64,000 bases of DNA from Squalus acanthias (GCA_030390025.1 JASTWF010000033.1:3350001-3414000), one strand, 5' to 3'; positions 18,771-26,465 are shown, counted from the first letter of the stretch. Made by a program: numbers and translations. The notes: generated by a model from the sequence alone, not told the origin.

Positions 18771-20249
18771 ATGGCCTATTCCTGCTCCAGATTCTTAGAT
18801 TAGGGAGTTAGGGTTAATTGGTGTCGGGCTTCCAGGCGTGATTGGGTCCCCATTTTAAAGTCCCCACATATTGTGGTTTACAGCAAAGCTTAGAGTAATA
18901 TGCAAGGCAGCTACAGTGGGTTGAACCAGAGACTGGTACACACTGAGAAACTGGGGCAGGTAAATCTGTGCTGCAGCGGCACCAAGTGGTGACATAGAGA
19001 GCTGCATTTATAATTCTGTGATGCGGAGATGCCTGTGTTGGACCGGGGTGGACAAATGTGAGAAGTCGCACAACACCAGGTTATAGTCCAACAGCTTTAT
19101 TTGAAATCACAAGCTTTCGGAGCTGCTGACTGAGGAGCAGAAGCAGCAGAGTGGTGGTCTCTGTGAGCAGGAAGAGGAGAAGGTTAAGAGACCAAAAAGA
19201 GCAACACCAGGTTGTAGTCCAACAGCTTGATTTGAAATCACAAGCTTTCGGAGCTGCTGACTGAGAAGCAGCAGCAGCAGCAGCAGCAGCAGCAGAGTGG
19301 TGGTCTCTGTGAGCAGGAAGAGGAGAAGGAGAAGGAGACCGCAGGCCACCACCAACACAACTAAAAACCACTGCTGAGGTGCCTGGAGAGAGGACAGGAG
19401 AGGAGAAGGAAAAAAAAGCCAAGGCCAAGGCCATTAACACCAGAGGAGAGGCTTTTCCACACTGCCTCCTCAATTGGCCTCCATTTTAGGAGAGGGAGAG
19501 AGGGGAGAAAACAACACCAACAAACATCATCTGTTTGGAAGGAGGGAGGAAAGAAAGAACAATAGCTACAGGTGGGTGTGATTCTGGTGCACTCTCCCAG
19601 AGACTTTGTTTTGTAGGTGGGGGGAGGAAAGAAGAAAGGAAGAAGGCCGGAACATCCAAGGGGTGTGTGTGTGTGTGTGTGTGGCTTCTGTAAAAGCTAG
19701 GCCGCACACACCATATTAAACACCCCTTTCCCATTGCCTGACCTGGGACAGCTGGAGCTGCCTAGGTGAAGTTCCCCAATTAATTTAATCTTATTGGGCA
19801 TCGTTAAGACCTGGTGCAGGACTGAGCCTGGGCATCTCCAGCTATCCCAGGTGAAGACATCTTCTCCCCCCACCAGAAGACCACCACCAAAGACTTTTAT
19901 TACATCGGAGAGTGCACCCCCCTGCCAACACCCACCCACCCACCAACCATCCTGAGTGGCGACCCTGCCCTTGCGGCTTCCCTCCTTCCCACCCCCTCTC
20001 TCTCTCTCTTTGTCTCTTGTCTCTCTCTGCCTCTCTCTCTAAGAGGCACCTCAATCTATTTTTAATTAAGTACCCATTGAGCAGAGGGGAGAAGGCCCCT
20101 CTCCCAATTAATTCATATAAAGGGAGAGGTGTGCCTTCAATTTAAGAGCTCCCTCTGCTCAGGGGAAAACAAAAACAAAAAAACCGAGGCCATTAACACC
20201 TTCAGGCCTGTGACTTGGGGTGAGTGTAGCCCTTAAAGACCAACCCATC

Positions 20250-22405
20250 ATGGCGACCACATCTTCGCCGGTGGCGGGGGTAGCGAGGACATACGCAAGC
20301 GTGGCAGCCGCGGCCACGGCCGCAGCCACGAGTCCTCCTGTTACCCCATCACCTTTTACCCTCCTTACGAGGAAGAATGGGGTCAAGAGCTACACTCACC
20401 CCAATATGACAATAGAGGCGTGCGTAAAAGCCATGGCTGGGGTTGTCGGCCCTTCAGCCATCGTCGCCGCCTCTAAAATGTACGGCAAGGCTGTGTTCTT
20501 CCTGGGGTCGGAGCGGGCGGTGTCCCTGGCCATCGAGAAGGGGCTCACCGTGGGCGGGACCTTCCTGCCGGTGGACCCCCTTGAGGCCACCGCGCAAAGG
20601 ATTGTGGTTTCCAACGTCCCGCCCTTTGTTCCGGGTGAGCTCCTCCTCCCCCACCTACGTCAACTGGGGGAGGTGAGGTCGGGGATCACACCCATCCCGC
20701 TCGGCTTCCGGGAAGCCAGCCTTCGGCACGTCTTCTCCTTCCGGCGCCAGCTTTTCGTCCGGCTGGCGCGGGAGGAGGACGCGGATGGCGCGTTCACGGT
20801 GCTCCACGGGGGGACCGCCCACCGCGTCTTCTGGACCTCGGACGGCGTGCGGTGCTACGCCTGTAAGGAGGTGGGGCACGTCCGCAAAAACTGCCCCGCC
20901 TCCAAGGCCACCACGACACCTGGCGCGGCCAGGGTTGGCGCCGCCGCCCCCCCTCCCCCTGATACTGTCCGCGCGTCGACGGCGACGGATGCGCGGTCGA
21001 AATCGGAGGCCAACACCACCACGGCCTCCGGCGGGGGGGAGGGAGAGCGTCCGGGGGGAAGGAAGGCGCGTAGGAAAAATAAACACCTAGGGGCGGATCC
21101 CCTCGTGGAGGAAACATCGGAGTTGACCGAACTCACGCCCGAGTAGATCGCGGAGTTGGTCGGGACGCATGAGACTGGGGGGGTCCTCGTGCCCGGGACC
21201 GTGACCGTGACCGCAACTGCTGAGGCAGCTAAATCAAGACCTGCGGCCGGGCTCGGGCCCGAGGGGCCCAAGAAACCCAGTCGTCGGAAGGGGGCAGAGA
21301 GGGAGGCCCCAGCAGACATGGAGGCCTCCCCCTCTCCGGGCCCCAACTTGTTAAAAAGAAAGCTCCGCCCCCAGCAGGAGGACTGCGAGGAGGAAGGACC
21401 ATCGGAAAAGGGGGGCAGTCGCCCGCCCGGGTGCTGCGCCCCACCCCACCACCGTCATCGTCGCGCGCGATCGGCAGGGGTCGTCTGTCCCTCGGGAGGG
21501 TGAGACAGCCGAGTCTGTCCGACCTGTGCCTCCCGGGGATGGGGAAGAGACCCTGCCCGTGGGGGGGGGCGCGGAACAACCCGCGGAGGGAAATGTAGTT
21601 CCGGAACCGTTGCTCCTCGCCGGGTCGGGCGTCCTGGGGACTGGGGCGGGCGAGGCCAAAGAGGCTGAAGCCGAGCCCGCCTTTTATAACCCAGACATCT
21701 CCCAGGGACTGCTCGACCTGGTGGAGGAGTGTAGCAATCCCCAGCCCGCTGGGTCGGAGGTTGGTGGCGGGGAGACGGAAAGCCCCCTGACTCCGTCTCT
21801 GTTGTTGGCGCCGGACGTGCTGGAGGAATTTGGGATTATTTTCTCCCTGGTTTCTCCGGTCGCCCCGGCGCCTGAGGCGGGGGGGGGGCCCCGAACCGCC
21901 GCCGCCGCCTCCCGGCCCGGCGCCCCTGAAGGAGCCCAGGGTGGACTCCTCTGCCACCGATCCTGGGGGTGGGATCGTGACGGAGGCAGGGCCGGCCGGT
22001 GCGGCCGAGCCGTTCGCTGCACCCTGTGCGACGGACGGGTCGGCCGCCGGTGACGACCTCCCGGAGGAGGACGGGGACTCGGTGGTGGGCATCGAGGACG
22101 ATTTGGAGTCCATCGGCAACGAGGTGATGGACGCCCTCGTGCCCTTCACCGACTCTCCCCTCATCCCCGTAGGGGAACTCCGGGATTTTATGGCCGTGAG
22201 CCAGGGTCGTCACAAGAAGATCCGGCTGGCCCTCGACAAGTGGTCGGAGCTGGCGCTGCTCGTCGTGTCCGTCCGCGCCGCTGTTAAAATCATGGGCGCG
22301 GACAAGGACATTGGCCGGCTCGAGCTGCGTCGGCTCAAGAGTTTCCACACTGGGCTGCTGAGGGAGTGGCGGTCGTCAGTGACCGCGCTCCCTCCCCTCC
22401 GTTAG
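20250..22405 (+). pseudogene. Tx1 ORF1 (RRM-like region, CCHC zinc knuckle), interrupted
   Basis: AASKMYGKAVFFL, IVVSNVPPFV, CYACKEVGHVRKNC; stop at 21144-21146 and frame changes before the C-terminal segment 21830-22405. Confidence 0.85.
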
Positions 22406-22430
22406 GTAGAGGTTGCACTATGCTTCTGAG

Positions 22431-26330: not shown

Positions 26331-26427
26331 TTTATTAAGTTTCATTTCAATTTTAATTGATTTACAGTAAATTTGGGTTCAACCAAAAGATGAACACCAG
26401 GTTATAGTCCAACAGTTTTATTTCAAA

Positions 26428-26465
26428 TCACAAGCTTTCGGAGCGGCTGCTCCTTCGTCAGGTGA
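26428..26465 (-). ncRNA. Minimal type I hammerhead ribozyme motif
   Basis: Minus strand TCAC-CTGACGA-A-GGAGC-AGCC-GCTCC-GAAAGCTT-GTGA: catalytic core, stem II, palindromic helix III (AAGCTT) and stem I (TCAC/GTGA). Confidence 0.8.

Follow-up and report, generated by a model that had tools for sequence, protein, structure and literature searches.

A Tx1-clade LINE in a Penelope-like tail probably carries a target-derived head that mimics a long target-site duplication

The window (the whole 64-kb stretch of DNA that was analyzed) contains a 7.3-kb LINE of the Tx1 clade that is bounded by 52-nt repeats, or 52-mers (c1, c2 and c3, from left to right), and is inserted in what is probably the truncated tail of a Penelope-like element, here called the host. 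The locus contains the following features:

19059–19085, minus strand: terminal part of the host Penelope-like tail left of the insertion; it matches the inverted arm from 19059.
19072–19085, minus strand: upstream copy of the putative 14-bp duplication; host sequence ends at 19085 in three joints of truncated copies.
19086–19123, plus strand: candidate target-derived head, bases 15–52 of the 52-mer (perhaps to base 57, at 19128); it is absent from truncated-copy junctions and has C at base 24, compared to the local T.
19124–19202, plus strand: 79-bp mini-element, made of the 5′ head of the element (to about 19183) and its 3′ terminus (19191–19202); it aligns to 19255–19345.
19203–19254, plus strand: c2, which separates the mini-element from the full element; its private changes are at bases 12 and 27.
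19255–20249, plus strand: Tx1 5′ UTR, with CAG, GT and CT runs; it is covered by contigs of other copies.
20250–22405, plus strand: ORF1, with a CCHC zinc knuckle (PF00098); it is broken, with a probable end at 22405.
22431–26330, plus strand: ORF2, intact, 1,299 codons, with AP endonuclease, reverse transcriptase and zf-RVT domains.
26331–26392, plus strand: 3′ UTR and 3′ terminus, short and T-rich, without a poly(A) tail.
26393–26444, plus strand: c3, the original local target; it shares T24 with the inverted arm, continues into the host and lies at the empty-site joints.
26393–26406, plus strand: downstream copy of the putative 14-bp duplication, the first 14 bases of c3.
26428–26465, minus strand: minimal hammerhead of the host, read by eye; it is complete, downstream of the insertion and antisense to the LINE.
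26467–26518, plus strand: inverted copy of the last 52 nt of the host tail, the second arm of the palindrome, 98% identical to 19059–19110 reversed.

The element (19124–26392) is GC-rich, and its ORF2 sequence places it in the Tx1 clade of non-LTR retrotransposons. An earlier note on this DNA had described an intact ORF2, and the open frame at 22431–26330 confirmed it. The frame matches PF03372 and PF00078, together with PF13966 at an E-value of 4e-5 that lies under its cut-off, and its product shares 50% identity over 1,299 aa with the 149-kDa Tx1 protein of Xenopus (Tx1L). In a quick tree of 29 proteins, chosen from 120 listed plus the query and leaving out the Keno, Kibi and L1 references, ORF2 groups with the Xenopus Tx1 protein and with turtle and sturgeon relatives; the SH-aLRT value of its group with P0021, P0018 and P0012 is 96. 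The closest named match to the endonuclease region, among the matches listed, is from a shark (74%), which makes a cartilaginous fish the probable source of the DNA. The ORF2 search returned no related viral locus. The ORF1 frame has a stop at 21144–21146 and further frame changes downstream.

At least 18 of the public runs listed, with six organism labels plus unlabelled rows, contain half or more of the sampled element words, and the element family is therefore multi-copy. Runs with the six organism labels contain 0.61–0.70 of the words sampled from 18900–26700. The element therefore hardly differs from one label to the next, a pattern compatible with close relatives, with relabelling and with transfer. 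The element was absent from raw-read run X21, where 127 partial reads fell mostly at simple repeats. A search of metagenome contigs for the 3′-junction pattern gave nine loci, all of them chance matches, with none of the nine continuing into the host repeat. The host-repeat pattern had zero matches in viral contigs and zero in prokaryote genomes.

Elsewhere in the window, a stretch at about 41300–47500 resembles by eye a degenerate retrovirus or LTR element, with gag-, integrase- and env-like pieces; four open frames in this stretch had no Pfam match. Fragments of other LINE endonuclease and reverse transcriptase frames lie at 35622–36380, 49319–50065 and 55749–56393. Six tRNA-like copies lie at 8738–16091, 31673–31745 and 37954–38025, and a Vault RNA lies at 9867–9956.

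Without the insertion, the host is a near-perfect hairpin of about 130 bp. Penelope-like insertion is described as normally yielding inverted, 5′-truncated copies (PMC8557442), and the palindrome is best read, from its layout, as a truncated Penelope-like tail together with an inverted copy of its end. The hammerhead at 26428–26465 has the CUGANGA and GAAA boxes, an extra base after position 9 and before helix II, a G10.1–C11.1 closing pair, a palindromic 15.2/16.2 replacing helix III, and a 4-bp helix I. These features are as described for Penelope-like elements (PMC4209133). An Rfam scan gave no hammerhead match for the host motif, and at the head and at 26300–26600 it gave only sub-threshold hairpin matches. 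No Penelope reverse transcriptase plus GIY-YIG reading frame adjoins the repeat in the window, and the Penelope-like assignment of the host is based on the hammerhead motif and the layout.

Empty host sites are present elsewhere, with joints at 19122→26446 and 19123→26447 in three contigs each. A second, empty host tail lies at 62633–62718; it lacks an inverted arm, its hammerhead half is decayed, and its base 24 is A. One contig of run X6 has 255 letters of other sequence directly before base 19059 of the host tail, and these letters end in a motif resembling part of the Tx1 5′ UTR. A host-only joint (19085→26485, two contigs of run X1) has a left arm that ends where the junctions of truncated Tx1 copies do; either a short inversion of Penelope or the repair of a cut target with a deletion might explain it.

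We compared the three 52-mers directly and found them exactly as the earlier note had claimed, at 19072–19123 (c1), 19203–19254 (c2) and 26393–26444 (c3), with two, two and four mismatches. Copies c1 and c2 differ at bases 12 and 27 of the 52-mer, c1 and c3 at bases 24 and 32, and c2 and c3 at bases 12, 24, 27 and 32. A 23-nt piece of the 52-mer has five matches in the 64-kb window, compared to 0.00 expected from 100 shuffles: c1, c2, c3, the inverted arm (26483–26505) and a further host copy at 62649. The right edge of the repeat is soft: BLAST aligns c1 and c3 over 57 bp, and two contigs of a host allele continue through 19128 and then into host sequence, giving a repeat of 52–57 bp. Both c1 and c2 belong to a tandem arrangement with a 131-bp unit (19072–19202), and the same head sequence occurs again after c2.

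These differences are better judged against the inverted arm, which preserves the local allele. At base 24, c1 and c2 carry C, c3 and the inverted arm T, and the host copy at 62 kb A. At base 32, the inverted arm matches c1 and c2, and C32 is private to c3; the change in c3 is therefore a later, private mutation. Bases 12 and 27 are changed in c2 only, and base 12 of c2, which lies within the true duplication that we propose below, is non-local; under that proposal it would require either a later mutation or a read-through dimer.

We aligned the contigs of four public runs to 18900–26700, and the junctions reported here come from 15 of 117 joints and from 12 of 40 rows of letters between joined parts. 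Three of the joints listed lead from the host into the interior of the element: 19085→25443 (run X6, one contig, short side of 27 letters), 19085→26158 (run X1, one contig, short side of 26 letters) and 19085→26114 (run X1, with one T between). In all three, host sequence stops after base 14 of the 52-mer, with three distinct truncation points and in two runs from two studies; each is one short contig or listed row, the letters between are recorded for one of the three, and one organism label covers them. The short sides of 27 and 26 letters are the host tail from 19059–19060. If junctions were evenly spread over the 52 bases, the chance of one shared junction base would be, crudely, 3.7e-4. 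Two forms of a 3′ joint (26375→19191, run X1) show the 3′ ends of other copies reading into the 12-mer that precedes c2, and from the length that an aligned side needs we infer that these copies continue into the target. Among the joints listed, three truncated 5′ joints and two forms of 3′ joint share one target; Kojima's criterion for target preference is that more than 20% of flanks lie in one sequence.

These joints point to a true duplication of 14 bp, or 15 bp when counting the C at 19071 that is common to the host and the 3′ terminus. The putative 14 bp lies inside the range of 10–20 bp given for the target duplications of APE LINEs (PMC6895275). The title of the earlier note had instead named a 52-bp target duplication that is present three times. 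That reading is not supported by the listed truncated-copy joints, all three of which lie at base 14, and a single target-site duplication is an improbable origin for the 52 bp. Nor do the same three listed joints fit one length of 52 bp at truncated and full-length copies alike, which staggered nicks would give. The note had also taken short duplications at other insertions to mean that the long one is locus-specific; that condition was mis-set, and short duplications at other insertions favor carriage.

The shared base 14 has another possible explanation, in which there is no fixed stagger. The whole upstream 52-mer, including bases 1–14 and possibly further sequence, would be RNA-derived and would recombine with the left flank, and base 14 would be a preferred point of repair or priming. 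Homology-driven 5′ joining has been modelled for R2 (PMC6895275), base 12 of c2 is non-local, and the host-only joint 19085→26485 (two contigs) also ends at 19085. However, the three head-less truncated copies keep exactly bases 1–14 upstream, as a staggered cut predicts, and 14 bp is within the 10–20-bp range of APE LINEs (PMC6895275). We consider the absence of a fixed stagger quite unlikely.

We consider it probable that the element makes a short duplication of 14–15 bp and that a target head is inherited in the RNA of its full-length copies. At base 24, carriage would need no extra step, whereas a true 52-bp duplication would need either a back-change in c1 or a conversion between c3 and the arm. 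Base 24 is the sole diagnostic base, its C was read base by base only at this locus (c1 and c2), and the same pattern could arise if c3 and the inverted arm underwent hairpin-templated conversion. The earlier note had also argued for RNA carriage of part of the repeat, and this claim is supported by the base-14 joints and by base 24, but not by the number of mismatches on which the note had relied. Over 11 long pieces, 88 of 10,081 letters distinguish this copy from other copies, an estimate made without 13 of the 24 listed pieces (eight short, divergent pieces of X1, three short pieces of X4 and two gapped pieces of X6). At a divergence of 0.5–1%, a true 52-bp duplication would show two mismatches with a P-value of 0.10–0.28. 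We therefore rejected the mismatch count as evidence of carriage; moreover, one of the mismatches (base 32) is private to c3.

We also rejected the host hammerhead as a processor of the LINE RNA, since it is antisense and the head contains only the hammerhead half without the CUGANGA box. There was no match to a sense-strand ribozyme in 18950–19800, and the fold of the head is no better than those of shuffles (z = −1.38). At 19117–19140 and at 19248–19280, a small hairpin can form between the CAG run of the head and the final bases of target origin.

Alternatively, full-length copies could be produced by a long stagger. One Tx1 enzyme would then cut the top strand at +14 in aborted copies, which are resolved otherwise, and at +52 to +57 in full-length copies, where a hairpin or cruciform would present the stem-II loop of the hammerhead. 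In the folded empty site, the 52/53 boundary is the first loop base of a short stem; there is a precedent in R9, with 126 bp (cited in PMC6895275), and two mismatches per 52 bp fit the age (P-value of 0.10–0.28). But one enzyme would need two precise cut sites, and at base 24 neither c1 nor c2 shows the local allele that c3 and the inverted arm share. A long cruciform also requires the inverted arm, and the host tail at 62633–62718, which is not a known target, is without one. We consider the long stagger unlikely. If it were true, resolution at two places would represent a structure-directed second cut that is tied to cDNA completion in an APE-type LINE.

The earlier note had suggested that cruciform structure might set the second cut. 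The fold of the empty site does not support this, with the 14/15 boundary located mid-stem. The 52/53 boundary is at the stem-II loop, and this position could reflect a structure-directed cut, which is improbable, or the site where the head was first captured.

The order of the locus is target, mini-element, target, full element and target, which is a head-to-tail stack. Inside the mini-element, 19124–19183 matches the head after c2 and 19191–19202 is the 3′ terminus of other copies, while a few letters join the two parts at a short shared motif. Because c2 follows a mini-element composed of a head and a 3′ terminus, the locus is a head-to-tail tandem. Seven contigs match unit 1 to 19183 and then continue into element-body-like sequence; therefore, single-head full copies exist. 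The change at base 12 of c2 slightly favors arrival as one read-through RNA from a stacked donor, and sequential insertion plus one mutation also fits. The deletion junction of the 79-bp mini-element is not present among the joints listed, and the matches listed contain no other copies of the 131-bp unit. The mini-element itself may be locus-specific.

The entire arrangement could also be an accident of this locus, in which an ordinary insertion was followed by a tandem duplication or unequal recombination that copied first 52 bp and then the 131-bp unit. Such an origin would account for the C24 and head sequence that c1 and c2 have in common, and for finding no other 131-bp unit among the matches listed. 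However, unit 1 ends in the 3′ terminus of other copies (26375→19191), which simply duplicating the 5′ end in place could not provide, and contigs of other copies cross the boundary between target and head up to 19183. We consider an accident of this kind very unlikely.

In target-primed reverse transcription, it is established that the bottom strand is nicked and that synthesis is primed at the nick. According to the short duplication and inherited head that we prefer, a site-specific Tx1 LINE would nick the Penelope-like tail at a fixed base and prime reverse transcription there. The second (top) strand would be cut about 14 bases downstream, yielding the 14–15-bp duplication that the truncated copies suggest. 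The family RNA would start inside an inherited copy of the target and contain at least bases 15 to 52–57. A complete cDNA would carry this head and attach in register at the top-strand overhang of 14 nt; annealing would be the simplest route if, by analogy to R2, bases 1–14 are also present in the RNA. The product would mimic a seamless duplication of 52–57 bp, with a distal part that follows the donor and not the local allele, while an early stop of reverse transcription would leave only the 14-bp duplication visible. A full-length insertion would also rebuild the target upstream, making head-to-tail stacks possible. The c2 copy would then separate the two members of such a stack, of which the upstream one is a mini copy with an internal deletion.

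In APE-type LINEs, the second-strand cut and the attachment of the 5′ end are described as poorly understood (PMC6895275). The family could provide a natural marker experiment, as it combines a fixed, polymorphic and very abundant target with a head copied from it. Each insertion would record, base by base, what was supplied by the RNA and what by the chromosome. Inherited target heads in the style of R2 would be extended to the Tx1 clade, and a Penelope-like tail would be added as a Tx1 target. The family would also be a warning that, in full-length elements, seemingly long target duplications can be artefacts of annotation.

The target duplication of Tx1L is 23 bp. The element resembles Tx1L in having the same domain order, an ORF2 that is 50% identical over 1,299 aa and a place in the same group of the quick tree. 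Unlike Tx1L, its target is probably the tail of a Penelope-like retroelement, with a duplication of about 14–15 bp and a carried head. Tx1L of Xenopus laevis is described as inserting sequence-specifically into Tx1D, a non-autonomous piggyBac element (PMC4494074, PMC1950540). Tx1 elements that target other transposons are known, including Tx1L in Tx1D and Tx1-Mar in Mariner-N4 (PMC4494074, PMC1950540, PMC3747384). A literature search of titles and abstract openings, outside subscription papers and Repbase, returned no Tx1 family in a Penelope-like tail.

The crocodilian Tx1-Mar and SINEU elements are reported to prefer fixed sites in another transposon, with SINEU-3 tandems that sandwich the target duplication, and the 5′ extension of SINEU-2B has been traced to a master copy within the target (PMC4494074). 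They resemble our locus in a site inside another transposon, which is probably fixed here as well, and in tandem insertions with the duplication in between. They differ in their Mariner target, in the 16-nt duplication expected for SINEU-3, in being old families and in their snRNA-derived heads.

The host resembles Penelope-like pseudo-LTRs in its minimal hammerhead (PMC4209133) and its inverted truncated copy (PMC8557442); unlike the Penelope-like elements described there, it has no linked PLE reading frame in the window. R9 of Adineta vaga has an apparent duplication of 126 bp (cited in PMC6895275), which is long, as here. According to that source, the R9 duplication is credited to a distant second cut, whereas the truncated copies here indicate a short stagger. 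The target duplications of Utopia are given as 0 or 20 bp (PMC4640811). R2 SIDEs are described as short, internally deleted elements that keep the 5′ and 3′ ends of their parent (PMC3774820). The segment at 19124–19202 resembles these SIDEs in its retention of both ends and is known here as one 79-bp candidate.

In Keno, the 5′ repeat is derived from U2. R2, whose target is 28S rDNA, employs a restriction-like endonuclease, and the end of its RNA is set by an HDV-like ribozyme. Here, the enzyme is APE-type, the candidate head is longer, reaching 38–43 nt past the duplication, and a search of 18950–19800 gave no sense-strand ribozyme. The topology is the same as that of the 5′ target duplications of earwig R2, and also of sow bug and horseshoe crab R2. 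In earwig R2, all 5′ junctions are reported to hold a 22-bp copy of the downstream target with three substitutions, which was explained by propagation through the RNA template and annealing between cDNA and target (PMC3774820). By this analogy, earwig R2 would be the closest precedent for a carried target head.
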